A DNA stretch of 64,000 nucleotides. It comes from Podarcis muralis. Taxonomy: Eukaryota. Positions 11,846-52,382 of the stretch are shown here, piece after piece. A program made the translations under genes and the position numbers. Where the stretch lies: positions 14,136,001 to 14,200,000 of the forward strand of contig NC_135667.1 in the NCBI RefSeq assembly GCF_964188315.1, given 5' to 3'. The notes below the pieces were generated by a model. The model made no database searches and was not told the DNA's origin. It was given only the letters and a program-made list of their open reading frames with translations. Position 1 is the stretch's first letter. Each line of letters opens with the position of its first letter.

Positions 11846-11887
11846 GTAATAGCAGTTGAACTTATTTACTTGCTTGGCTATTCTCAG

Positions 11888-12028
11888 AATGAGTGCCTAA
11901 GCTATGGCTGTGGGAGCCATCTTGCCTCCATCCTCAATGAGAAAGAGTCAGATGTGGTGGCCAATTACATCTCTGCACACCAGAAAAATGCAAGCCAGGT
12001 TTGGATTGGGCTGCATGATCCCACTGAG
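11888..12028 (+). CDS. Lectin B exon 4
   Basis: ttctcag|; NECLSYGCGSHLASI...VWIGLHDPTE|gtgagt; 141 nt; WIGL motif. Confidence 0.95.
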
Positions 12029-12570
12029 GTGAGTTGCCTTTACTTTCTCAATTTCAGGCCATTGTCACTGAGTAACAGCTTCTTAGCATCACCATTCCAT
12101 CCTTATCCGAATCGTCTCCCCATGTGACTCCAATATGTGACTTTTCCACAATTTTCTTATAGAATCCTCCTCTAATATTGTTGTGGTAGTGGGGAGATGA
12201 TTAACATATTCAATCCTCCTGGCAAACTGGGAATAATATCCCCTCACTCACCCAAGTTTAGGATGTTCCACCATTCTCCAGCAGAGTTTCTTGTTCTTTG
12301 AGGAAAATAAGTGGCTCACGTAAATGTAAACTAAGCTTTGAATAATAAAGAAAACTGTAACAAAATAACAAAATAAGAGAAACTAAATACAACAACATGA
12401 GGCTAGTCTGAGGCAAGAAGCGAGAAGATGCAGTTGGTCCCTCTTAACTGATATTCTTAACGGAACACAGACACTGAAGGGAGGGGCTCCGGAGCAAAAC
12501 ACACAAGTCCCGCCCACCAGATACCAAGCACTCTACTATTCAAATTAGGTCCCAGTGTTTTTCCTACAAA

Positions 12571-12824
12571 TACAATCGTACCTGGTTCTCGAACACCTTG
12601 TGACTCAAATGTTTTGGCTTCCAAACACCGTAAACCCGGAAGTGAGTTTTCCAGTTTGTAAACGTTCTTTGAAACCCTAACGTCTGATGTGACTTCCGTA
12701 GCTTCTGATTGAGTGCAGGAAGCTCCTGCAGCCTATTGGAAGCCACACTTTGGTTTTTGAATGTTTTCGAAATTCGAACGGGCTTCCGGAAAGGATTCCA
12801 TTAGAGAACCAAGGTACAACTGTA
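12571..12824. mobile_element. Tc1/mariner (Tigger-like) MITE in lectin B intron 4
   Basis: TA-caatcgtacctgg ... ccaaggtacaactg-TA; same family as 2723-2957. Confidence 0.78.
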
Positions 12825-12936
12825 TCTCCATCATAAACTGGCAATAGCTTCATAACTGGCCAACTCTCCACGTGATCTTTGCATTGGCCGCCTCGTTTCG
12901 AATGAATGTATGATCTGTTCTATCACATTGCTGCAG

Positions 12937-13051
12937 AAAGGACATTGGAGGTGGTTGGATGACGAGATCTACAATTACAAACGCTGGGATTCTCATCGCC
13001 CAGACAACTACAACAATGAAGAATATTGTGTGCATCTGCTAAAGGACGCAG
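12937..13051 (+). CDS. Lectin B exon 5
   Basis: ctgcag|; KGHWRWLDDEIYNYKRWDSHRPDNYNNEEYCVHLLKDA+G|gtaagc; 115 nt. Confidence 0.95.
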
Positions 13052-13724
13052 GTAAGCAAGCAATTTGTAGGGACTGATCAAAAAAAGGTTTCATGCCTAT
13101 CACTCCATCAGTTTCAAGTATTTCAAAGGGTAGTATCTGATTTTAAAAACCAGAAAAATCAAACTCAAAATACTCTGGTTAGTCATTGCTACTGATGGTT
13201 CATTCATTTGAAAAGGTTTACTCTGGGTATTAGATGAGTAAATACAGTGGCAGAGCTTCATGCTCTGGCACTGGGGGGGCGGAGAGCAGGTGGGGGCGGG
13301 GCTGGTGCACATCCTGGGGGCAGGGGGGGCTGCTTGCAGGGCTGGGGTGCCCAGCACTGGTGGGGGGAAGCCACGATGGCACCCTGCCCAGATCGCCCTG
13401 CTAGGGGCAGGGCACTCCCCTCTCACTCCTCATCCTCTGCCAGTGAGTGGATACACTCTCAGCCTGGTGCTTCTCTGTACTAAGGTTCACAAGTCAATAT
13501 CTCTGGAGATCTGACCAGAAGTGGTCCAACTTATTGATCCTTTAGGGACACTTCCAATCATACCATGAAGCAGAATCTTTTTCTGCAGTCAACCTTCATT
13601 CTTCGGTTGCATGTGATCACATATTTTGTTCAGAAAACAGTGGTTGCCAAACTAAGGTCTGGGTTATGCCATCTTATATTCTATCATGTTTCTTAACAAA
13701 ATGATTAGGCTCAAAGAGCATTTT

Positions 13725-29738: not shown

Positions 29739-29967
29739 TTTAGGGAAGTTTTTAATGTCTGATGTTTTATCATGTTCTTAATATTTTGTTGTCTTGGGAG
29801 GGAGGTCCGGTCAGATGGGTGGGAGATAAGTTGTTGTTGTTGTTGTCATGTTGTCTTTTTGATACATTGTGAACCACTTTGGGCACCATTATGTGGGAAA
29901 GTGTCCTACAGTTAAGCGGATGATGATAGTGGTGGCAGAATGACTTTAGTGCCTTCTCTATTCTCAG

Positions 29968-30108
29968 ATTGCATGCCAAAGCCATGGCCGTGGGACCCAT
30001 CTGGCTTCTATACACACAGAGCAAGAGTCAGCCTTGGTGGCCAAGTACATCTACTCAAAGCAGAAGAGAAAATATAATGTCTGGATTGGTCTCTATGATC
30101 CCTATGAG
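29968..30108 (+). CDS. Lectin C exon 4
   Basis: ttctcag|; IACQSHGRGTHLASI...VWIGLYDPYE|gtgagt; 141 nt. Confidence 0.95.
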
Positions 30109-30495
30109 GTGAGTTCCCTTCAATTACTCTATTCCAGGTCATCATCACAGCACAGTGGCTCCTTAGCAATGCCATCCTATCATCTCCCAGGCTGCATCCC
30201 ATAATTATTTCTCCAATATTTTACATAGGGGCCAGGCATGCTGGGTTCCACCCCACATTAGGGGTGCCCACACATGCAACACGTTGCCGCTCCCTGCCAG
30301 CCCCCCACAGAGAACATTTTGTGGGTGCCTCAGCACCCATGGCCCTGCATTGATGGTGCTTATGGTAGGGGCTTCTTCTCTAATGTCTCCATCATAGCTT
30401 GCAAGAGCTTCCTGCTGAGCAACCTCCTCTGAAGATCCTTGCACTGAGCTACAAACCTCCTTGGTCAAATGAGCTGTTCCTTCTCTTTTCTACAG

Positions 30496-30610
30496 AACCG
30501 AGATTGGAAGTGGCCTGATGATTCAATCTTTAATTACAGCAACTGGAACGGATGGGAGCCAAACAACTCTGACGGCAAGGAGTATTGTGTGGAGCTGAAA
30601 CGTAGGACAG
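30496..30610 (+). CDS. Lectin C exon 5
   Basis: ctacag|; NRDWKWPDDSIFNYSNWNGWEPNNSDGKEYCVELKRRT+G|gtagga; 115 nt. Confidence 0.95.
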
Positions 30611-31227
30611 GTAGGAAAACTATTTGCATGCCTGAGAAAAAAGGCGTTTTCACCTTGAATGCTACATTACCCTCCGATTCCCTATAAATTTCCAACCTTT
30701 CTCAGGGTTGCATCTGACTAAATTGCACTGAAAATACCTCTGTCAATAGACCCAAATTAACCACCACTAATTAAAGTCTATTGATTTTAAGGGATCCAAT
30801 TATGAGTCATATTTAACCTTCAACCAGGTGTTCGCTTGTAGAAATGTTTACAGATCAATTACTCTGGCTAGCAGTGGTCCATTCATTTAGCATTTAGCAT
30901 CACTGCCCAACACACCAGGAGGCTTCAGCTGTAGCTCATCTACATAGTTTAGTTGCCTGTGTTTTATTTGCATGCATACTCATTTACATATTATATTCTG
31001 GAAACAGTGGTTTTTCAAGTGGGCCATGTCATATTATTTTCTACAGTATTTCTCTAAGAAGTGGTTAAAGTCAGATAAAGAAACAAAATAAGGCGTCACA
31101 TTAAAAAAGACCCGATTTCAGCTGCAAATTTTGAATCAGGAGCACACATGAGGTTGAAGTCAGGCAACTGTCGGATGGGCAACCCACATGGGGTCGGTCA
31201 TTTCTGGATCAGTCTATCCTGCCCAAT

Positions 31228-31410
31228 CTAGGGTTGCCATACGTCCGGATTTTCCCAGACATGTTCGGGAATCGGGGCCTGAAAATGGCATCTGGGCAGC
31301 AAAGCAGCAAAATGTCTGGGAAAACCCGGACATATGGCAACCAGGGCTATTTTCAAAGGAAAATGTTTCAAACATGCTTTAAAAGCTGGAAATTTGGGGT
31401 GGTGGGGTGG
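31228..31410. mobile_element. Probable non-autonomous hAT-like DNA element
   Basis: ctagggttgccatacgtccgg end and internal gaaaacccggacat(a/t)tggcaacc inverted sub-repeats; TSD not resolved. Confidence 0.5.
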
Positions 31411-31865
31411 TGGAAGGGAGATGTTCACACAAAAAACCCTCAAAAAAAGAAAAAAGCTCAGGCCGGCCCTCACTTGTTCCTGGTGCACCTTGCAATTTCA
31501 ATTTGAGTTAACTGGGCATGATCTGAGTGCACATTTGCCCAGATGGATGGCATGTGCGCAGAGCGGTGGCGGCTGCCGAAAGGAGTCAAGCACCCCGGGC
31601 TCAGTGCAAGTCAGGAGGAAGCCCAGTTGGTGATTGTCCCAAAGCCGCTTACCTTGAATAGGGGCCTGAATAGGGTTCAGGGAGGGAGGCGGTGTAAGGC
31701 CCGAGCAAAAAGAAAAGAAAAGAGCTCAACAAGTTTGTCCGGATTTTTAGTATCTGAAATATACCCTAGTCAAATCCAATTCCTAACCCAGACTCCAAAC
31801 CACATCCATTTGGTTATGTAATAATGGGCAAGAAATAGTAACTTTTGTCGTGTCTTGAATTTTAG

Positions 31866-31933
31866 GTTTCCGAAAGTGGAATGATGAACCTTGTCAGCAT
31901 TTGAATACCTATATCTGCAAAAAAGAGCTTTAA
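31866..31933 (+). CDS. Lectin C exon 6
   Basis: ttttag|; (G)FRKWNDEPCQHLNTYICKKEL*. Confidence 0.95.
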
Positions 31934-32645
31934 AGGAGACTGGAGTTCCCAACTCTGCCTGCTTAGTGGATGTGTCTCTGATCTCATTCCTTCCTCTCCC
32001 ATCCATCAAAGGGGAAAAAACAGCTCTTCTTCATTTTTAAAATAACCTCTTCTATAGAGCTACCTCTGTGGTCTTCCCATTCACTTGGAAGTTTCCTTGT
32101 TACTTCTGCAAAATATAATCCTAATAAACTCGCTTACGTGTATTCTGTTTTCACTGAGTCCATCCTTATTGCTCCAGTTCCAGTACCATATATCTGAAGA
32201 CTGGGGAAGGGGCAATTCCTGCACTGGAGTTCCCAGGGAAAAGAAGCACATTGTATCTAAGGGGCCCCAGTCCAGCACTGTCGCCGATACCTGACAAGGC
32301 ACTCAGGGCAACATGTAGGTGAAACTTCCTATCCCAAACCCAACGTCTTTTCTCAGAGGTGCTCAGCAGAGCTGGTACTAAAGCTGGGATTTTGAGAGCT
32401 GGGGACAGGGGGAAAAGTAAGGGGATCCCAGACTACCTGACCAGTGCCAAATCCTGGGATGCTAAACCAAACATCCCTGCCCCAATTGCTCACCTGTAGG
32501 CCCTTCTCTGTGCTAGACATGAGTGATTTTGTCTGGCTGGAATGACTATGATTGTCTGGATGGTGGATAGAGAGATAGGAGTAAAGCAGCCTCTGACCTT
32601 TGCCTGGCTTGAAGGCAGTCTACTGTGCAAAGGCAAGAGTCCCCA

Positions 32646-35763: not shown

Positions 35764-36389
35764 CTTTAAAAGAGAACAAATGACAGAATTAGGTCCAGAA
35801 GTTAGGAGGCACATGAAGAATAAATAGTCTGGATTAATTTTGCTTTCTGATCTTAGATTTTCTACATCCCTTAGTCAACACTTTCCCTATGGTGAGGAGA
35901 ATACACAACTCAGACTTTAGCCTGGCAACCAGTTTTCAGAATACAACATGAATGTGATGGCGGTGGTGGTGATGGTTGCTACAAATTGCATACCACCCTT
36001 CATCCAAATATCCCAGGGCAGTTGTCACGTACAATTTACTATGCAGATAGGCTGTAACTGAACCATTCTACATTGTGGTATGTTGGAAGTGACCCTAAAT
36101 GCTGAACAAATAAATCACTGCTGTTCCACTCTACAGAGTAATTATCTTTGCTGTAAAGAAACAAATACCTGACCAACAGTTGTATCCAACTAACGCATAC
36201 TCAGAGTATACTCCTTAAAATTAATGGACTTTCATAAAATACTAACCTGGGTCTGCTGATTTTGATGGAACTATTTTGAGTATGACTTACAATCCTGAGA
36301 GAAGTAGGACATTGATGGAGAAGTGTGTGGCCATGTGGAACTCAACATCTAATTGTTATTTTGTCAGACATTGCAAATGGTTTCCTTAC

Positions 36390-36516
36390 CTGGAAAATAT
36401 AGGAGCTCCACACAATGCTCATAAGGGGCCCAGTCGTCTGGTGTGGTTGGGTACCAGGATTTGTAACCTTCGTCGAACTTGTAGACTGATCCATCAGGCC
36501 ACCTCCAACGCCCATT
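36390..36516 (-). CDS. Lectin D exon 5
   Basis: cttgcag|; NGRWRWPDGSVYKFDEGYKSWYPTTPDDWAPYEHCVELLYFP+G|gtaagg; 127 nt (12 longer than paralogs). Confidence 0.93.
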
Positions 36517-36760
36517 CTGCAAGATTGAGACATTATAGATCATGTAAGTAAGGAAATGAGGAGCCTGGTGTCAATATTATCTGGATATGTTGGTCTGTGG
36601 GAAGGTAGTGCCAGCTATGAATGAGACAGAGGAGGAGCTGCATGGAAAATAATATTGATGTAGCATGTGGGGTTCATTCTTGGATATTATTATATGAGGA
36701 TGCTAAGGAGCCACTACTCTATGACAACGACTTTGAATAGAGCAAGTGAAGGCAACTCAC

Positions 36761-36892
36761 GTAATGAAGCCCAATCCATACGTTGCTTTGTTCTTGCTGG
36801 GATGCGGAGATGTGCTTGGCAATCAGGGCTGTCTCATCCACATTAAGGATAGAGGCAAGGTGAGCCCTATGGCCATAGCTACGGCATGCAGT
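36761..36892 (-). CDS. Lectin D exon 4
   Basis: ttcttag|; TACRSYGHRAHLASILNVDETALIAKHISASQQEQSNVWIGLHY|gtgagt; 132 nt (9 shorter than paralogs). Confidence 0.92.
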
Positions 36893-38129
36893 CTAAGAAT
36901 GGAGAAAGAATGAAAGACGTTTTGCCACAACCGCCATCAGAACATGTTTCTTTATATACCACTTTCCCCAAAAAGTCATTCCCATAGTGTCTCACAACAC
37001 ATCAGATAACAACAGTTCAAAAACCATATCTCACTAAAAGGAATGATGCAGAGTTGGAGCTTTGCAAATGTGAACAAGTTTGTGGAACATCAACATTTTT
37101 ATTTATTTCTCTGAAATTTGACTTTCAAGAGGCAGGTCTTACTGGTAGACTGTAAGGAATTAGTGTCACATACCAAGTTGCGAGGCTTAAACTTTTGTGC
37201 ACTAATGGCACCTCCAGATCGACAGCATTTCACACAAGGAATTCAAGCACATAACAGGAAGTGTAGGTTTGCATAATTAATCCACTTAAACAAATAAATG
37301 AACAAATGTAGGAGCATGTTCTTGCCTCCTCATCTAGGGTGAATGCTGGATGAGTGGTCAATTAAAAGGTCATCTGGAGAAACCCTAAGCCGGTCTTCCT
37401 ACAAACCCTTTTTTTTTTAATGTAGAACTTTTAGGTGGAAGCATTTTTATGCAGAATGTTGAAAAAGCTGCAAAAGGTTACAGAAAGGGAGTATTACATT
37501 TAAATAGAGGCAAGGAAAGTTGAACTTGGGAGATTTGCTTTGCAATGCCTAATTTATTTTAACTTGAGCTCTGGAACCCAAATGATCAGGACTGCATCCA
37601 ACCTGCTGCATTCCTTTCACAGCACTGCAGACCACACAGCATACACTGTTATGTCACCCTTGCACTGAAAAGTTGCAGGGGTGCAGTACATACGTAATGT
37701 TTGGTAAATTGCCTTTGGAATTAGGTCACTGGGTGCTTTTTGACATTGTAAAAATACTATTCTGCAAATATATAGGCTGAGCATAGGCAGAAGATCAAAC
37801 ACTCCCATAGACTGCCAAAATCTGAAGTTCATACATGAGTTCTCTAGGGAGACAGCCAGAGCCATGAAATGTTTTGCGAACCCAGTCTCAGATCTGTTTC
37901 AGAACTGCAGTCTATTCTACTTTTCCACACAAAGATTTCTTCCCTCTTCTCCCGGTGGGAGGGGAGGATTTGGCATAACTGTCACATTCTCAGCTCCCAC
38001 GGAGACGCTTCACTGGAACATAAAGTGACCAACTCTCTTTTGTTAAGTCTGAGATGCTGGACAGGTATTGTTCCCGGGCAAGGATAGTCCTACTCACAGA
38101 AATCTGATAGGAGCCCAAAAGATGTAAAT

Positions 38130-43593: not shown

Positions 43594-45246
43594 CACTAGG
43601 AGTTTCATGAACAGACACGGTCTTCTGTAGAACACCACAAAAACATTGACGTTTCCATGATATATATTTTTTGGGTGGGAGTAGTAATCCCTACCCCCAC
43701 CCCAAGTGTCCCTTATCCTCTGGGGCATTGTAGAAAAAAGAAGAAGGCTGGTGGCCACTGGGGCCAAAAGACTTTTTAAAATTGGGTATCCTTAAGGATA
43801 TTAAATGTGGGTACAGGGTTGACAATCTGTTTTACTGAGATGTCAACTGTATTCTAAAATCTGGGTTTACGCAACAATGCACACCCCACAGATGACTTAA
43901 ACACTGTTTGATGTCTTGCATGTCTTAATGACCCATCAAGGATAAAAAGAATATAGCCGATGTTTCAAATTGCCTCAAAAGCAGTATTTTTTAATGGATT
44001 CCATATTTAGGCAGTACCAGAGGTCCTGCAGCAGGGTACATTCCCCAAATAGAGTTTACCCTTTGAGTCATTGCTTGGGGGAGTTGCAGGGGCAAGACTG
44101 TGCCACCCACCGTCAGTTAGAAATGGAATTGTTATTCAGGTCATGGGAGAAAAACAGGTCTGATTCAAGGTGCACCTGGGTGAAGGAAGTTTGGTTTTAC
44201 AGGGTCTCCCTGGGTGGGAGGTAGGGGGAAGGAGAGTATTTATAGAGCTAATATATTTTGATGGTTTCAAGGAAGCATGCTGGGAAGAAAGCAAATAGGC
44301 TGGACTAATACATTTAAGAAGGATTGAAACCAGTGCATTTGATCACAATGTGTTCTTTCCCCCTCTTTGTTTAAAGGACTTGGCACCACTTTCATGAGTT
44401 ACTTACCACTTTTATGGACTTTATATCAACTTTGCAGATGTAGATAGTTAATGTTTTAACTGCTGTTTATGGCTTAGGGCGTTCATCAAATATGGGCTAG
44501 ACTTATGAATACCGAGGCACACATGGAGGCTATGCCGTCAGAGCACCTATAATGCTTCCTTGTTGAAATAGTCAGAGTCTAAAGGTCAGGACCTTTTGGC
44601 AGGCTAAAAGCCTGACTGGTAAAGGAAGTAGTGCTAGAACCTTTTGAGATCTCCCTCTACCTGCATGAGGCTTGGGGTCACATCAACCCTGAAAACAATG
44701 GAGAATTGTTTCTGAAAGGGTGTATCCTGTTTCATTTTACCAGTACAGAACCGAATTCTGAGTGAGGGAGACATGGCAAGCTGTGAGAGAAAAGGACAAA
44801 TCAAAATGCAGAAAATTTGGCATGTTGGGGGGTGGGGTGGTCAAAAAGAGATTGGAACTCAGCAATAGTTCTCACTTCTTCTTTACTTAATTTTCAGATG
44901 GCATAGCAAACCATTCCCAAACAGCACTGCTTTGGACAGCTCTGGAGATACTACTTACCAGATTAGGAATGATAGTTTCTGAGATCAAGGAATGGGTTCT
45001 GGTCCATGTTTGGATACCATTGGACACCAACTTGAATACAGATGGTGGACGGGGACCTTCAAAATTGCACGTATTTTGACACCTGTTAAAAATGGCTGCA
45101 GCCCCACGGGACTTGGGGAATCCCGGGATTCATTAGCATTTATCATTCACTGCGCCAGCCAATCGGCTGGCGGTGGGGGCGGGCTTAGTAGGGGGCATTT
45201 AAGGTCGGGGCAGCCCGTGCTCACCCCTTTCTTTCGCAATTCATCT

Positions 45247-45534
45247 ATGGTCGAGCAATTTAGAGACCACAGGGTCTGCTTTTGGACGGACAGCCAAGCA
45301 GTGGTGTCTGTTTTAAATAAACAATCTTCCTGTTCGCCTAGAGTAGCGTGGCTTTTACAGTATTTTGTCCTTTCCTGCCTTTGGCTAAACTTGTATGTCT
45401 CAGCCAAATTTGTACCGGGTATTGATAACAACGTCTCGTTTCCAGATGGATCGCTTTCGCTCATTGGCGCCGGATGCACAGCAGCTGCCTCAGCCATTTC
45501 CGGAGCACCTCTGGAGTATTGGCAATGAGAAGTG
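45247..45534 (+). pseudogene. DIRS-type RNase H C-terminal remnant
   Basis: HRVCFWTDSQAVVSVLNKQSSCSPRVAWLLQYFVLSCLWLNLYVSAKFVPGIDNNV / SRFQMDRFRSLAPDA, with a frameshifting deletion of the ADAL-type motif near 45433. Confidence 0.85.
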
Positions 45535-46425
45535 ATAAAGGGAGTATTGTCAGCAGTTGCTCCCTCAACCCTAAGATCCTATAATAAGGCGTGGTCAGAT
45601 TTCACATCATTCCGTCGGAAAAAAGGGCTATTTAAGCTGGGCAGGTCCCCAGCTTAGTCGGAGGTTTTAGAATATCTAGTGCACCTCCGCGACTTAGGGC
45701 GGGCTCCCAAAACCCTCAATATTCATTCCGCAGCAATATTGTTCTTCTGCAAAGCTCTGTTCTCAGTCGACCCCTGCGCACACTTTGTGGTGCGGAAGCT
45801 TTTGGAAGGCTGGCGTCGGGCACAACCTCCTAGCCCCGATAGCAGAAGACCCATAACTTATGACATACTCATGCAAATATGTAAGAAGCTCAGGGTCATC
45901 TGCAGTTCTAGGTATGAGGCCAGGCTATTTTCCACAGCTTTTTCATTCGCCTTCTTTTGCTCCTTGCGCATAGGCGAGGTGGTCTGTGAGGACAAACCGG
46001 ATAGAAATAACAGGGGGCTCCTCTTAGAGGACGTGACCTTGTCAAGCTCAGAGGTAATCCTGAAAATTCACAGCTGAAAGACTGATCAGCTTGGTAGAGG
46101 GGCCCTAATCCGCCTGCAGGCTACTCAGAAGGCCGGCCCTTGCCCAGTAAAGGACGCAAGAAAATTCTTGTGCTGAAGACCAAAAGCCAGTGGCTCTTTC
46201 TTCATACACGCAGATGGCTCTCGCCTGTCAAAGCACCAGTTCACGAGGGTTATGCGCAAGGCAATCGCTGCCATTGGGCTTCCAACTGAGGAGTACACCG
46301 CACATTCTTTCTGCATCGGGGCTGCGACCACTGCCGTGCACATGGGTTTACTGGCGGAGAGGATAATGGATATGGGACGGTGGAAGTCGAACGCTTACAA
46401 GGGATACATCCGGAAACCATGGTAA
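45529..46425 (+). pseudogene. Tyrosine recombinase (phage-integrase family) of the YR element, inactivated
   Basis: One frame: APSTLRSYNKAW...FFCSLRIGE...HS*KTDQLGRG...CPV...YTAHSFCIGAATT...GRWKSNAYKGYIR*. Three internal stops, and the catalytic HSFR reads HSFC. Confidence 0.9.
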
Positions 46426-46480
46426 CATTCCTTTCCCCATCAGCCCCCCTGACCCGGCTCTCTTGCTCTTTTATTTTCAG

Positions 46481-47055
46481 GTGTCAGGGCGGTGCGTCTG
46501 TGGATCATCGGCCACAGCATTGCCCACTGGGCAAGATTGTGTGCGGTTACCAGGGGCTGGTGCGACGATCTGCAGCTCCCAAACAATGTTGAAGTTTCCT
46601 GGATCACGCGTCGGGGAATGCGTTGGGAGGAATTCTTCCCAGCAGTTACAAAAAGAATTGCTTCTGAAGGCCCACTGGAGGTGGTGGTCATCCAACTGGG
46701 CGAGAACGACCTAGCTTACAGAAAGGGGGTGGACTTAATGTGGCATATTTTCAATGACCTGGGGGAGTTGCGGTCCTCCTATCCAAATCTAACAATTATC
46801 TGGTCATCTTTGCTTGAGAGGAGCGTGTGGAGGGATTACAAAAATCCTGTGGCTGTGAATAGAGCCAGGAGGATCCTTGAGTGCTTGGTGGCACATAGAG
46901 TGGCTGCGATGGGTGGCCCGGTCATTGATAACCCAGGCATCCAGTTTAGCAAGGAGGCCCTCTACCGCAGGGATGGCGTGCATTTCTCCGATGCTGGTAA
47001 CTATATTTGGCTTGCTGACATTTTCCAGGGGATCAGGGATTGGTTACAGGTCTGA
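46481..47055 (+). CDS. SGNH/GDSL-family hydrolase ORF of the YR element (intact, no ATG, preceded by a splice acceptor)
   Basis: Blocks WIIGHS (I), RRGM (II), QLGEND (III) and RDGVH (V) all present; open for 187 codons from GTG 46492; ctcttgctcttttattttcag| acceptor ends at 46480. Confidence 0.85.
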
Positions 47056-47954
47056 GGGTATTGGCGGCGAGCCTGGCTCATGTGGTGGTAAGAATTGGCA
47101 GGGGTATTATTATGCAAATGAGTTGGGGGGAGGAATGCCATCACCTCCCCCAAATGTTGAAGGGTAGTTCGTTAAAGGACTCCGGGGGGTGTCGCCTCAT
47201 CCGAAACCTATGGAGGCTAGGGCCTAAAGCATGCTCCCGAGCGGTAACCCCTCAGGGAGCCCCTAGGGATGTGCATCTCAGGGGCTCCCCCTGTTGGCGC
47301 TTAACCCTTCCCGGTTTTATACTGGTTAGTCTGATAGGGCCAATGCCTAAAGCCAATACTGCTCTTACCTGTAATCAATAAAGTTGTGGCCATTTTTCGC
47401 CCATTAACCTAATTTCTGGTGTCCTGTGTCTTTATTCCATCTGTGGGAGGGGGGGGGGGAATCACCACGCAATTGGATGTCTTTTTGAGTCAAAGTGGTG
47501 GACTGAATCTTGAAAAAACTGCACTGATGTTGATGTCTTGCTTGATGCCGTGCATGATATAAGCAGCAGTGCAGGGATGATGCTCCTTAGGTACAATGTC
47601 CCTGCTTCCCTGGGACTTCCAAGAAAGGAGTGCAACTCACCCACCCCCGTCGTGTTGAGATTTGCAATACTGGAAGTGGAGTTGTAAGTACGGCTGGATG
47701 GAGGAGGATAGCAGTGCACTAGGAAGTATATGCCTAGGAGAGAATTTATTAGGATTACACAGAGCTGAAGCCACAAGAAAATGTCAAAGATGGAGACTGA
47801 AGAAGACAACGCTATAGACATGAATGTTTATTTTAGAGTCATTGGAGACAGCTGGTCTTTCTCTTTGAGGGATGTCGGAGGAGAAAATGATACCAGAGGC
47901 ATCTGACTTCAGTCGAAACTCCCAGCTGGCACTGTTGGGAACTGCAGGACTGCT

Positions 47955-48022
47955 TTACAGCTCTTGCTTGCAAATGAAGGTATTCATTTCATCACAGATT
48001 CTATCATTCCACTTCCGTAAAT
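47955..48022 (-). CDS. Lectin E exon 6
   Basis: tttcag|; (D)LRKWNDRICDEMNTFICKQEL*; 68 nt. Confidence 0.95.
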
Positions 48023-48332
48023 CTGAAATTTGAGATAATAGACTCATACATCAGTTTGGCAACCACTGTTTTCTGGATAAAATATATAAGTGAAGATAAT
48101 TACATGCAACCAACCTATGCAGACTGGATGTAGTCAAAGCCTTCTAACTCATGCTCAACAAATGGACCCCTGCTGATTTGGTGTACAGAGTAATTAATTT
48201 GTGAACCTTGGTACAGATAAGCACATGGCTGAGTGTTGTATCCAACCAACTCAATCTCAGAGTAAACTCTTTAAATTTAATGGATTGTAGGTAGCAATGA
48301 GGTATGAGTGATGATTGTAGGTAGTGATAAGA

Positions 48333-48687
48333 GGGACGCGGGTGGCGCTGTGGGTTAAACCACAGAGCCTAGGACTTGCTGATCAGAAGGTCGGTGGTTC
48401 GAATCCCCGTGACGGGGTGAGCTCCCGTTGCTGGGTCCCTGCTCCTGCCAACCTAGCAGTTCGAAAGCACGTCAAAGTGCAAGTAGATAAATAGGTACCG
48501 CTTCGGTGGGAAGGTAAACGGTGTTTCCGTGCGCTGCTTTGGTTCGCCAGAAGTGGCTTAGTCATGCTGGCCACTTGACCCGGAAGCTGTACGCCGGCTC
48601 CCTCGGCCAATAAAGCGGGATGAGCGCAGCAACCCCAGAGTCGGTCACGACTAGACCTAATGGTCAGGGGCCCCTTTACCTTTACCT
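48333..48687 (+). mobile_element. Sauria SINE in lectin E intron 5
   Basis: gggacgcgggtggcgctgtgggttaaaccacagagcc head, B-box ggttcgaatcc, (ACCTTT)n tail; ~11-bp TSD taggtagtgat at 48318-48328 and 48687-48697. Confidence 0.93.
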
Positions 48688-48820
48688 AGGTAGTGATGAC
48701 TAAGTACAACTTTGTTAGATACAATCTTGAGAAATATTGGCAACGGATGAAGAAGCAGATGGCAATGTAAAATCCAAGATGCAAATGTCTTCTTCTCAAC
48801 CCTGGAAATGTTTTCCTTAC

Positions 48821-48935
48821 CAGAGCCGTGCAGCAACTCCACACAATACTCCACGCCATCCACGTTGTTTGGTTCCCCTGTTTTCCAGCTTCGGTAATTG
48901 AAGGTTGATTCATCAGCCCACCTCCAACGCCCATT
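48821..48935 (-). CDS. Lectin E exon 5
   Basis: cctgcag|; NGRWRWADESTFNYRSWKTGEPNNVDGVEYCVELLHGS+G|gtaagg; 115 nt. Confidence 0.95.
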
Positions 48936-49444
48936 CTGCAGGAATGATATGGAAGAGATCATGCAGTCATTTGAAATGAGGAGCTCCGTTAAAAGATCAT
49001 GTGGAGCATTGAAACAAAATAAAGAAATTCCTTCCAGTAGCACCTTAGAGACCAACTAAGTTTGTTATTGGGTTGTTATGTGGAGCATTGGTCAGAGTGA
49101 AGCGATTGCCATTTAGGATGGAGATATTAGAGGACCCCCATAAACATAATGGAGAAGTTAAATATTGGATTAATCCTGGGAGATGATTGAGATAAGGACT
49201 GAATGGTGGTGTTAAGAAGCCACTATTCAATGATTAGGGGTGCCAACTTGAATAAAATATTGGGAAGGGAGCTGGTAAGGCAAGGCCCCTATAATCTATC
49301 ACACATTTGAATGACAGTGCCCAATAATGGGGGGAAGGGGCTGGCCCCCTCAAATATTTTATGGGGGGAGGGACCTCAGCCCCTAGGAGTTGGCTCCTAC
49401 ATCACTGACAATGGCCTGAAATAGAATAAGAGTAGACAACTCAC

Positions 49445-49585
49445 CTGCCGGGGATCTTGGAGCCCAATCCAAACATTACTTGGATTTTTCTGGTATGTGG
49501 CAATGTGCTTGGCTACCAAGGCTGCCTCTTTCTCAGTGAGGATAGAGGCAAGGTGGGTCCCACGGCCATAGCTCTGGCACTCAAT
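49445..49585 (-). CDS. Lectin E exon 4
   Basis: tttttag|; IECQSYGRGTHLASI...VWIGLQDPRQ|gtgagt; 141 nt. Confidence 0.95.
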
Positions 49586-50691
49586 CTAAAAATGGAAGAA
49601 ACGAAGGATACTTTGTCACAATTCAATGCCCCACTAGCATGGGCGGGGGATGAATTCAATTCAGTTCCCATTTAAAAGCCAATCCCTCACGTTCAAATTG
49701 TCCAACAAGAAGAAAAAAAGATAAGGAAGGAAGGAAGGAGACTGAAACACAGCCATATATTGAAATTCACACTTAAAGAGCATGCATTAGGGGAAAGTCT
49801 GCATTAAAAGGAATCCATGGGTGAAGACAACATGTACAATGAATCATATGAGGGGAAAGGTACAAAACTGCATAGAAAACTGTGTTTGCCAGGATAAATT
49901 TGAACTAAAATGCTGAAGAATTTTCATGAGAAATAAATAAATAAACAAACAAACAAATGACAGATTGCTGCAGAAATGTGAGGAACGGAATTTAAAATTG
50001 GAAGAATGAGATACTGCAAGAAAAACACACACCACATATTCGTACCTACCAATACCAAAGTGAAATTCTCAAAAGGTGAGGTTCCCTGTGGAACTTGTCA
50101 GATGCAATGTTACTATTCTGACAGCACCTCCAGGCTCTGAGTATTTTGCATGAGGAATTGAAGGACATACCAACGTACAATTAGAGGGAATAAAAATGAT
50201 CTGTGATTTTAGGGCAATAAATCTACTACAGAAACAATAATTTTTGAGGTTAGGAAAGTGATGGAGAAATGCTTAGAAAAGTGTGGGATGGATGGACGAT
50301 TAATAGGATGTTATATAAACACTCATGCAAATTAAGATGAATGTTCATTGTTGTATAATCTCTCTACATTCTAATAGCCACTTAAGGTTTTTGAAACCAA
50401 ATAAGGAAACATAGCTGAATACAAATATCACATGAGGGAGCTGTAAACTGGTCTAACAAACTGAAAATCAGCATTATTTTAATTGTTAATATTGTGAAAG
50501 CTTCAGAAAGACAGAATATGTGTTTGGCTATATTTAAGGAAATCTGAGCTTTGAAGGATTTCCTTTGGAATATCAAACTGATATTAGCTCAAGCTCTGCA
50601 ATCCAGGAGGTTAACTTTCCATCCATCTGGCTGCATTCTTTTTTTGACACTCCAGACCACACAACCCACTAGTAAACCATAGGATGTAAAC

Positions 50692-50926
50692 CAGCCTTTC
50701 TCAACCTGTGGGTCCCCAGATGTTGTTGAACTACAACTCCCATCACCCCTGGCTAGCAAGGCCAGAACTCAGGGATGATGGGAGTTGTACATAGCTGTCA
50801 ACGTTCCCCCTTTTTAAAGGGAAATTCCCTTATTCTGAATAGGATTCCTTGCAAGAAAAGGGAAAAGTTGACAGCTATGGAGTTGTAGTACAACAACATC
50901 TGGGGACCCACAGGTTGAGAACTGCT
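50692..50926. mobile_element. Palindromic MITE with a nested 90-bp hAT-type mini-element (50790-50879)
   Basis: Outer ends tttctcaacctgtgggtccccagatgttg ... caacatctggggacccacaggttgagaa; inner TIRs catagctgtcaac/gttgacagctatg with 8-bp TSD gagttgta (50782-50789, 50880-50887). Confidence 0.88.
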
Positions 50927-51059
50927 TAAACCAACCCGTTCTCTAAAGCTATGAAGATTTGCAGGAGTGTAGCATTTACCTTGGGTTGGTAAAGCCACTT
51001 CCGCGCTGGAGAGGAGGTGGGGTTGTGGGCCCCATGCCCACTTCACATGCATGGGGGCT

Positions 51060-51767
51060 GACTCACAGCCCCCACAAGACTGGAGGAATCCTCGGACATG
51101 TCATCCCCATGGCCAGCCAATCGGCTGGCCAGGGAGGCGTGGCCTGGGCTAATTAGGGCTGGTGCGGCTAAGGATTTCCCTCTCTTCTTCGCTCCAGCTG
51201 CTCTGATTTCCCACCCCGCCCACCCTTAGGTTTGGCTCTACGACATTGCTATGGACTTCGGTTGGTCGCCGTCAAGGGGCCTGGTAGGAATTTTTTCCAC
51301 TTGGCAAATTGGCACCAACCATTTGGTTTTTCGCCTACCTCGTAGCAAATCGTCACAACATCCTCAGCATTGGCGGTTAGGCATTGGTAAGGGTGTTGTT
51401 ATGCAGATGGGGGGGGGGGAGGAAGCGCCATCACCTTCCCCCAAAGTGAAGGGTAGTCCGGTAAAGGATTCCGGGGGGGCGTTGCCCTGTCTGAAGCCTA
51501 TGGAGGTGTGGGCCTAAGGCACGCCCCCGAGCGGTGACCCCGGGGGAGCTCCTAGTTGATGTACATCAGCAGGACTCCCCCTACTGTCGGCTAACCCTTG
51601 CCGGTCTTCAAGCAATCAGGCCGAAGCCGGTTAGTCGATAGGACCAATGCCTAAGCCAATACCGCTCAATTCCTGCAATCAATAATGGGCCTTTTTCGCC
51701 CATTAACCTTAAACGCTGTGTCTTGTGTCTTATTTTCCAAGGGGGGAGGCGGGTACTCGCCAGGCAA
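51060..51767 (+). mobile_element. Coding-less relative of the YR element (terminal segments joined) in lectin E intron 3
   Basis: ~51067-51135 aligns to ~45100-45175 and ~51368-51767 aligns to ~47058-47472; no ORFs between. Confidence 0.8.
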
Positions 51768-52133
51768 ATCCCTTTGGAAGTCACAGGAAGCTAAGTGGCC
51801 TCTTGTAATATCTGAGTCTATTCACAAATATGCATGTTGAGCACAGGTGGAGGGTCAAAACAAACACTTCAATAAGCCCAAGTTTGCATATTCCAAATGA
51901 TCTCTACAGAGGCAAACAATGTCTGACCCCCCCCCCCCCTTTTTAGCCCACATGCCTTTTCCTAAAACTGCACACTATTGTTCTTTTCATGCACAGATGA
52001 CTTCTTTCTTCTCCTGGGTTGGTAAACTACTTCACCTTATCATAACAAATCAAATCTCTTTTGTTCAGTCTAAGATGCTTCTCGTGTACTTTCACATAAC
52101 ATTATGCTTTCGTAGGAGAGGGATGTGCCTTAC

Positions 52134-52225
52134 CTCAGCATCTTCCCATGACATCTTAAAATCAAAATAAGCATAGCAGTTGCCCTGGTTTTGCATCCAG
52201 TCCCTGGGACATGAGCTGGTCTTCG
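52134..52225 (-). CDS. Lectin E exon 3
   Basis: catacag|; (A)KTSSCPRDWMQNQGNCYAYFDFKMSWEDAE|gtaag; 92 nt. Confidence 0.95.
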
Positions 52226-52382
52226 CTGTATGGAGAAAGAAGGAAGAAAAGAAAGAGGTTTGCTCTTTAGCTATATCATTAGTGATTCCATGAGGAAAAC
52301 ACATAATATTTTAAAACCCTGCTCTTTTGTCCCAATAGGATTAGCTGGGCAAGCTCTCCATTCAAAATCTAAGGAGTACCTT

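Follow-up and report, generated by a model that had tools for sequence, protein, structure and literature searches.

A dead Ngaro retrotransposon of Podarcis muralis keeps an open SGNH hydrolase exon behind a splice acceptor that likely joins it to gag in intact relatives

The window analysed here, a stretch of 64,000 nucleotides from Podarcis muralis (contig NC_135667.1, positions 14,136,001 to 14,200,000), carries on its plus strand, at 45093-47472, what is left of a Ngaro retrotransposon with an open reading frame (ORF) for an SGNH hydrolase. The copy is dead, its hydrolase frame is most likely open by chance, and the acceptor that it has inherited likely splices the hydrolase, in intact relatives, to the first 200-235 codons of gag; we give this reading a probability of about 0.8. 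At the 5' end lies a remnant of the split direct repeat A1 (45093..45235, A positions 66-208), truncated at both ends and holding CCAAT, GC-box and TTTAA motifs that we take to be promoter-like. It is joined straight to the C-terminal remnant of RNase H (45236..45535), the leader, gag and reverse transcriptase (RT) having been removed by a deletion whose joint is 45235/45236. The RNase H remnant is frameshifted by a 14-nt deletion after 45432; the loss of gag and RT and the frameshift agree with the initial annotation. The 14-nt deletion also damages the upstream portion of a predicted second phase-1 splice acceptor (45426..45445, TTCCAG/AT, the slash marking the junction here and below, with its AG ending at 45445) that enters the frame of the tyrosine recombinase (YR) in intact relatives.

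The YR coding region (45446..46425) is inactivated by four in-frame stops. Three of them, at 45655, 46075 and 46174, are internal to the frame at 45532-46425 and had been recognized before, as had the change of HSFR to HSFC, but a fourth, near 45526 in the N-terminal part, had been missed (three TGA and one TAG in total). Behind YR, a 3' splice signal (46449..46480) consists of a CTGAC branch-like motif 32 nt 5' of the exon, a pyrimidine tract and a CAG that ends at 46480 and splits a codon after its first base (phase 1). The hydrolase exon that follows (46481..47055) comprises 190 whole codons behind the acceptor and belongs to a frame open over 46453-47055, that is, 200 codons from stop to stop with the stop codon at 47053-47055; the frame is thus open as claimed, but its length is not the 187 codons first given. 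The motifs GHS, RRGM, GEND and DGVH are all present, and there is no initiating ATG, the first Met of the frame (46618) lying 3' of the catalytic Ser. The element ends with a single split direct repeat B (47083..47472) containing AATAAA at 47377; A2 and B2 are missing. The catalytic motifs, the absent start codon, the acceptor with its tract and phase, and the AATAAA all agree with the initial annotation. No gag donor motif of the family type remains in the window, and the dead YR retains two phase-1 donors that are weak and have short ATG frames (45881 and 45912). Because the donor and the gag ATG are lost, this copy cannot make the Gag/esterase fusion proposed below, and it is an ordinary dead, internally deleted Ngaro retrotransposon.

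The persistence of the hydrolase frame calls for no selection. Private changes, defined as bases that 20 other copies all lack, amount to 13 non-synonymous and 1 synonymous with 0 stops in the 190 codons of the hydrolase, and to 11 non-synonymous, 4 synonymous and 2 stops in 298 codons of YR (Fisher p 0.34 for hydrolase versus YR; against neutral expectation, p 0.22 for the hydrolase and 1.0 for YR). When 12 of the private hydrolase changes are checked against 36 homologues, 11, or 10 when one site is left aside, yield a residue absent from all 36; two private changes fall on positions invariant in 36/36, one of them adjoining the catalytic His. With a 13:1 ratio and changed invariant residues, purifying selection on the copy after its insertion, which exaptation would entail, is not seen. 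The window hydrolase decays at least as fast as YR, an outcome that the initial annotation had itself set against its proposal. In a simulation of 14 random changes (5000 trials), no stop arises in the hydrolase frame in 57-65% of cases, and a Poisson estimate from the YR stop rate puts this chance at 8-15%; the earlier caution that an intact 0.57-kb ORF may survive by chance is thereby upheld. In 22 other copies tallied by hand, neither ORF is broken preferentially, the numbers being small: both ORFs are intact in 16, both broken in two, only YR in two and only the hydrolase in two. The acceptor, with its family-wide conservation, is more than chance; the open frame of the window copy is not.

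The domain is an SGNH hydrolase as judged from its Pfam match and predicted fold, and esterase activity is predicted for it. The window protein matches Pfam Lipase_GDSL_2 (PF13472) with an expectation value (E) of 4e-5, under the curated cut-off, and 35/37 aligned sequences match PF13472 at E<=0.01. A structure model computed from the 37-sequence alignment reaches a predicted local distance difference test (pLDDT) score of 88.4, and its top matches in the PDB are SGNH/GDSL hydrolases (E 3e-8, template modelling score about 0.74); with the single sequence, the fold is poor (pLDDT 53.5) and a PDB search returned nothing relevant. Among relatives picked by the GHS motif, GEND is present in 44/44 and DGVH in 43/44. 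The dead YR matches Pfam Phage_integrase at E 0.006 on a fragment, under the curated cut-off; it shows 63% identity to a RefSeq XerD-like model and 76-89% to intact copies.

A DNA search of the window's genome, in which 40 of 2920 candidates were scored, gave 81 matches, the closest of the matched copies being 85-93% identical to the window copy. Twenty 10-kb stretches display the complete order of A1, a leader of ~1.8 kb, gag, RT/RNase H, YR, hydrolase, B1, A2, spacer and B2. These full-length relatives thus possess the split direct repeats and carry 5' of YR long ORFs for gag and RT/RNase H, of which only the RNase H end is kept in the window copy; RT was identified from its position and the RNase H end motif. 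Their gag has ~500 codons, an ATG start and a CCCH finger, and many of the stretches have open frames. The Ngaro assignment is drawn from the repeat pattern together with a hydrolase in place of a methyltransferase, the repeat pattern being shared with PAT-like and VIPER-like elements according to the account in PMC6681497. Two further, more diverged family groups were reached via the proteins P0001, P0026 and P0014, and RefSeq lacertid proteins map onto the window's genome at 95-100% identity.

Other regularities of the family were noted in passing. Many copies sit together on contig C20 (30 Mb), which carries 14 of the first 30 loci. Conservation is higher in the A2-B2 spacers (for example L003:3990-4026) than in repeat A, and these spacers contain a conserved 11-codon reading frame that begins with ATG. 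In three copies with internal deletions the break falls at the 3' end of repeat A every time, and the sequence resumes at differing internal sites (45235/45236 in the window, L005:456 and L024:1495-1505); a breakpoint shared in this way may stem from premature strand transfer in the course of reverse transcription. L024 rejoins exactly at the start of the hydrolase exon, with a short duplication. At the gag/RT overlap (L040:4381-4520 and homologous sites), the gag frame reads CCC TTT CGN in 36/37 matches from three groups, which makes it a candidate +1 frameshift site on sequence grounds; we take it to resemble the viral UCC UUU CGU motif. In 13 copies, no conserved acceptor for RT turned up.

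The acceptor in front of the hydrolase has the properties of a conserved 3' splice site. In 26 copies chosen by a pattern located inside the hydrolase exon, the acceptor CAG stands at the same place in 25, a branch-like motif lies 31-41 nt 5' in 23, and an upstream in-frame Met precedes the hydrolase in only two; the two findings that would have spoken against splice access, an in-frame ATG and the want of a conserved acceptor, are therefore not what the family presents. The spacer between YR and the AG differs in length and frame among intact copies, with stops 3-109 codons upstream, and indels just 5' of the AG shift the frame, the exon itself being unshifted. Across three diverged groups, 44/48 loci have the acceptor in phase 1, with GT, AG, AA, AT or GA as the first exon bases. 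The conservation profile is that of a branch site, pyrimidines and YAG, and the bases past the AG are unconstrained. Between subfamilies, the ratio of non-synonymous to synonymous substitution rates (dN/dS) of the hydrolase is 0.09-0.19 in 6/6 pairs (YR 0.05-0.09; gag 0.06-0.14, over unsaturated pairs), indicative of purifying selection; the enzyme serves the replicating element. A second acceptor, in the RNase H/YR overlap, reads CAG/AT in 39/41 matches, and this site and its phase had been predicted from conservation before gene models were examined.

The initial annotation had suggested a look for a phase-1 donor in the leader or gag region, and such a donor is found inside gag. It reads G/GTACNT, N being G, C or T, in 41/41 loci that keep the G-T-S/Y motif (7/48 are without the stretch), at a synonymous divergence between family-1 subfamilies of 0.5 to saturated. 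For comparison, GGT is used by 486/1580 (31%) of the other gag-frame Gly codons and by 28/64 of those before Thr. A signal scan of 15 full-length copies with weight matrices ranks the hydrolase acceptor first and the RNase H/YR overlap acceptor, phase 1 in the YR frame, second; it also detects two invariant phase-1 gag donors, at offset 1249 (rank 1) and at offset 619 (rank 4).

Database gene models draw the same joins, with canonical GT-AG introns. On the window's genome, P0001 (XP_077790728.1) consists of 235 gag codons ending in TCAG/GTACGT, a 3.4-kb intron ending in TTTTCAG, and the hydrolase. P0014, from a far more diverged group, combines the same gag donor, a GT..AG intron likewise of about 3.4 kb and the hydrolase exon. 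In P0026 the same donor is joined, over a GT..AG intron, to TTTCAG/AT at the start of YR, and a gecko model with a gag-like start, P0024, passes into YR at the identical residue. In all, 9/17 hydrolase-bearing models, including P0003 from another lacertid genus, join gag at the homologous place. Two other candidates were rejected: a donor in the leader, where repeat A ends (GCG/GTTT), is a weak motif with no ATG ahead of it, and L024, considered as a spliced copy, has its join at that GCG/GTTT site but shows a short duplication and microhomology and was hence left uncounted.

Taken together, intact copies are predicted to use one phase-1 gag donor (G/GTACNT) directly after a Lys/Arg-rich stretch. 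Its joining to the acceptor in the RNase H/YR overlap would give a Gag-N/YR protein, its joining to the hydrolase acceptor a Gag-N/SGNH protein of ~400 residues, and full Gag and RT/RNase H would come from unspliced RNA. The shared gag exon ends with a Lys/Arg-rich and then an acidic segment and includes neither the Gag core nor the zinc finger. By analogy with the ORF1 protein (ORF1p) of ZfL2-1, the fusion might bind RNA via the basic stretch and membranes or acyl substrates via the esterase, and so might anchor RNA or particles of the element at membranes, or strip acyl groups. The initial annotation had proposed a spliced subgenomic RNA in the position that env occupies in retroviruses. Splice access is retained here, given the family-level branch site, tract and CAG, the lack of a conserved ATG and the phase-1 donor; a separate env-like protein is not, because the donor sits inside gag and the predicted product is a fusion of the Gag N-terminus with the esterase. 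It is in this modified form that the splice idea is right and of value, as the prediction of one gag exon shared by esterase and recombinase. YR and the hydrolase have no start codon near their beginnings, and the view in print for YR is frameshifting; splicing onto gag would explain how two genes without a start codon are expressed. If true, the shared exon names the actual proteins and the exact junctions, and accounts for a portable phase-1 esterase exon in host gene models. We think it probable that squamate Ngaro elements use a shared gag exon with two alternative acceptors, that YR and esterase are both made as Gag-N fusions, YR not being a frameshift product, and that the esterase form is convergent with the ORF1p-esterase architecture found in L2/CR1 long interspersed nuclear elements (LINEs).

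Several points weigh against joining at these sites. The donor supported by gene models ranks only fourth in the scan, behind G/GTAAGG before the CCCH finger. The donor search demanded the amino acids G-T-S/Y, which leaves only third codon positions informative, and the copies are related, so that 41/41 does not stand for 41 independent events. Part of the conservation of the YR acceptor can be due to coding constraint, the site falling within the RNase H motif ALSRFQ. Among the hydrolase-bearing models, 8/17 use other joins (YR-internal, host exons or none), and the introns of the RefSeq models may be purely predicted ones. Three degenerate junction patterns, covering the family 1 hydrolase join and the family 1-2 YR joins, gave 0 matches to intron-less genomic copies, a weak negative. 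Finally, no RNA read or contig spanning either junction was seen at the one locus surveyed, a copy without the donor, so intact copies are untouched by that test.

Of the alternatives, the one that survives best is that intact elements splice to the hydrolase from another donor, either G/GTAAGG or a leader exon, with a Gag fusion of greater length or an independent env-like protein as the outcome. The G/GTAAGG site (gag offset 1249 in L040, just 5' of the CCCH finger) is an invariant, phase-1, donor-like motif with GTAAG in 15/15 family-1 copies and has the higher score with the weight matrix; among comparable sites, Gly is always GGT in only 2/80 and Lys always AAG in 9/56. The 1.8-kb leaders, for their part, are too diverged for a scan across subfamilies. 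However, G/GTAAGG, the first donor candidate, is used by 0/17 hydrolase-bearing models, against nine for G/GTACNT, and its conservation was followed within family 1. It was set aside as first choice and retained as a rival that we regard as unlikely, although both gag donors could be used.

A second alternative, that there is no splicing, would have YR and hydrolase made through ribosomal frameshifting, read-through or internal initiation, with the splice-like motifs and the gene models as by-products. Frameshifting in the RNase H/YR overlap is called probable by a review quoted in PMC13003380, the ORFs of Xenopus Ngaro elements all overlap in the account of PMC9210276, and no junction read was seen. 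Against this, the YR-hydrolase spacer varies in length and frame, so that no fixed read-through or shift fits, stops lie 3-109 codons upstream, and the conservation takes the shape of a branch site, pyrimidines and YAG, with constraint ending after the AG. We consider this explanation very unlikely, and more open for YR than for the hydrolase.

RNA at the window locus bears on the remaining alternative. Four sequencing runs were aligned, two of them contig sets (X1 and X4) taken as RNA-like by guess and two raw-read runs. X1 has one contig at 45846-47396 (depth 17) and X4 one at 46214-46519 (depth 5), both unspliced over 46480/46481, and the two raw-read runs have zero depth over the hydrolase. 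No joint at 46481 is among the joints listed, contigs being liable to omit rare forms. Coverage of the RNA-like kind extends beyond the left end of the element to 44817, and X4 holds a spliced lectin mRNA at depth 123; for these reasons read-through from the neighbouring lectin gene is a simple source of the element RNA, though X1 shows no spliced lectin RNA and the contigs give no strand. That the host keeps the window hydrolase as an exon, whether of a host transcript or of one started at the element's promoter, the ready-made exon of the initial annotation, could draw on the open frame with its intact catalytic motifs and acceptor, on low-level RNA-like coverage in 2/4 runs, on the weak donors persisting in the dead YR, and on the model P0002 (XP_033024283.1) of another lacertid, in which a hydrolase exon stands amid an immunoglobulin-superfamily protein and could be an exonisation or a merged gene model; yet this least probable of the alternatives is already largely refuted by the loss of the donor and gag ATG, by decay at least equal to that of YR with its 13 non-synonymous versus 1 synonymous private changes and altered residues otherwise invariant in 36/36 homologues, by contigs that are unspliced at the acceptor and run beyond the element's 5' end, by X4 contigs that adjoin the 3' end of the spliced opposite-strand lectin mRNA (depth 123 versus 5-10 on the element), and by a left flank that is an old dispersed repeat with no host exon.

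The element is convergent, tail to tail, with this minus-strand C-type lectin gene, the last exon boundary of which lies at ~47945 and the RNA of which extends to 47502. The left flank (44900-45090) has at least 40 matches at 70-79% identity in a DNA search of its own, and a host exon considered at 44898 was dropped, the flank there being a dispersed repeat. The window contains at least four C-type lectin genes, which lie in both orientations (11880-13700, 29957-32300, 36000-37640 and 47500-52270), the last of them spliced and expressed in run X4, and it also holds fragments of LINEs and short interspersed nuclear elements. Inside an intron of the minus-strand lectin gene, 51000-51767 (plus strand) is what remains of a more diverged Ngaro element, a solo A-spacer-B of which 51178-51767 is 75% identical to A2-B2 of copy L003.

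The predicted fusion can be compared with several known systems. Retroviruses, gypsy elements (for env) and copia-type elements make spliced subgenomic RNAs in which a long intron drops the polymerase genes to reach a 3' ORF. In the lizard family, by contrast, the donor would lie 200-235 codons inside gag and serve two acceptors, and the 3' ORF encodes an esterase, not an envelope. Our literature search, mostly of open-access main texts and without Repbase notes, found no account of gag-to-hydrolase or gag-to-YR splicing in Ngaro elements. Published accounts describe Ngaro elements that carry an SGNH ORF, the function of which is unproven (PMC9210276; PMC7192593). Among them, Xenopus DIRS-53_XT and DIRS-54_XT share with the full-length relatives the A1...B1-A2-B2 arrangement and the order gag, RT/RH, YR and SGNH ORF after YR, whereas the window copy itself is without gag, RT, A2 and B2. 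The Xenopus elements have four overlapping ORFs, in contrast to a hydrolase that stands apart from YR, has no ATG and lies behind an acceptor; the main text of PMC9210276 does not contain the string 'splic'. In the account of PMC3905857, ORF1p of ZfL2-1 combines a coiled coil and an arginine-rich motif with an SGNH esterase, which cleaves esters and binds negatively charged lipids. There the first protein of the element carries the SGNH domain, which follows a helical N-terminal part and the arginine-rich motif, an arrangement that the predicted Gag-N/SGNH would share. The family profile gives a weak match to the structure of the ZfL2-1 esterase (PDB 4c1b; E 0.003), which is also matched by fold at E 1.6e-6 (rank 40); bacterial GDSL hydrolases fit the model better, so that the likeness is no proof of common origin. 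In ZfL2-1 the esterase is encoded within one ORF1, whereas in the lizard Ngaro it would be added by splicing.

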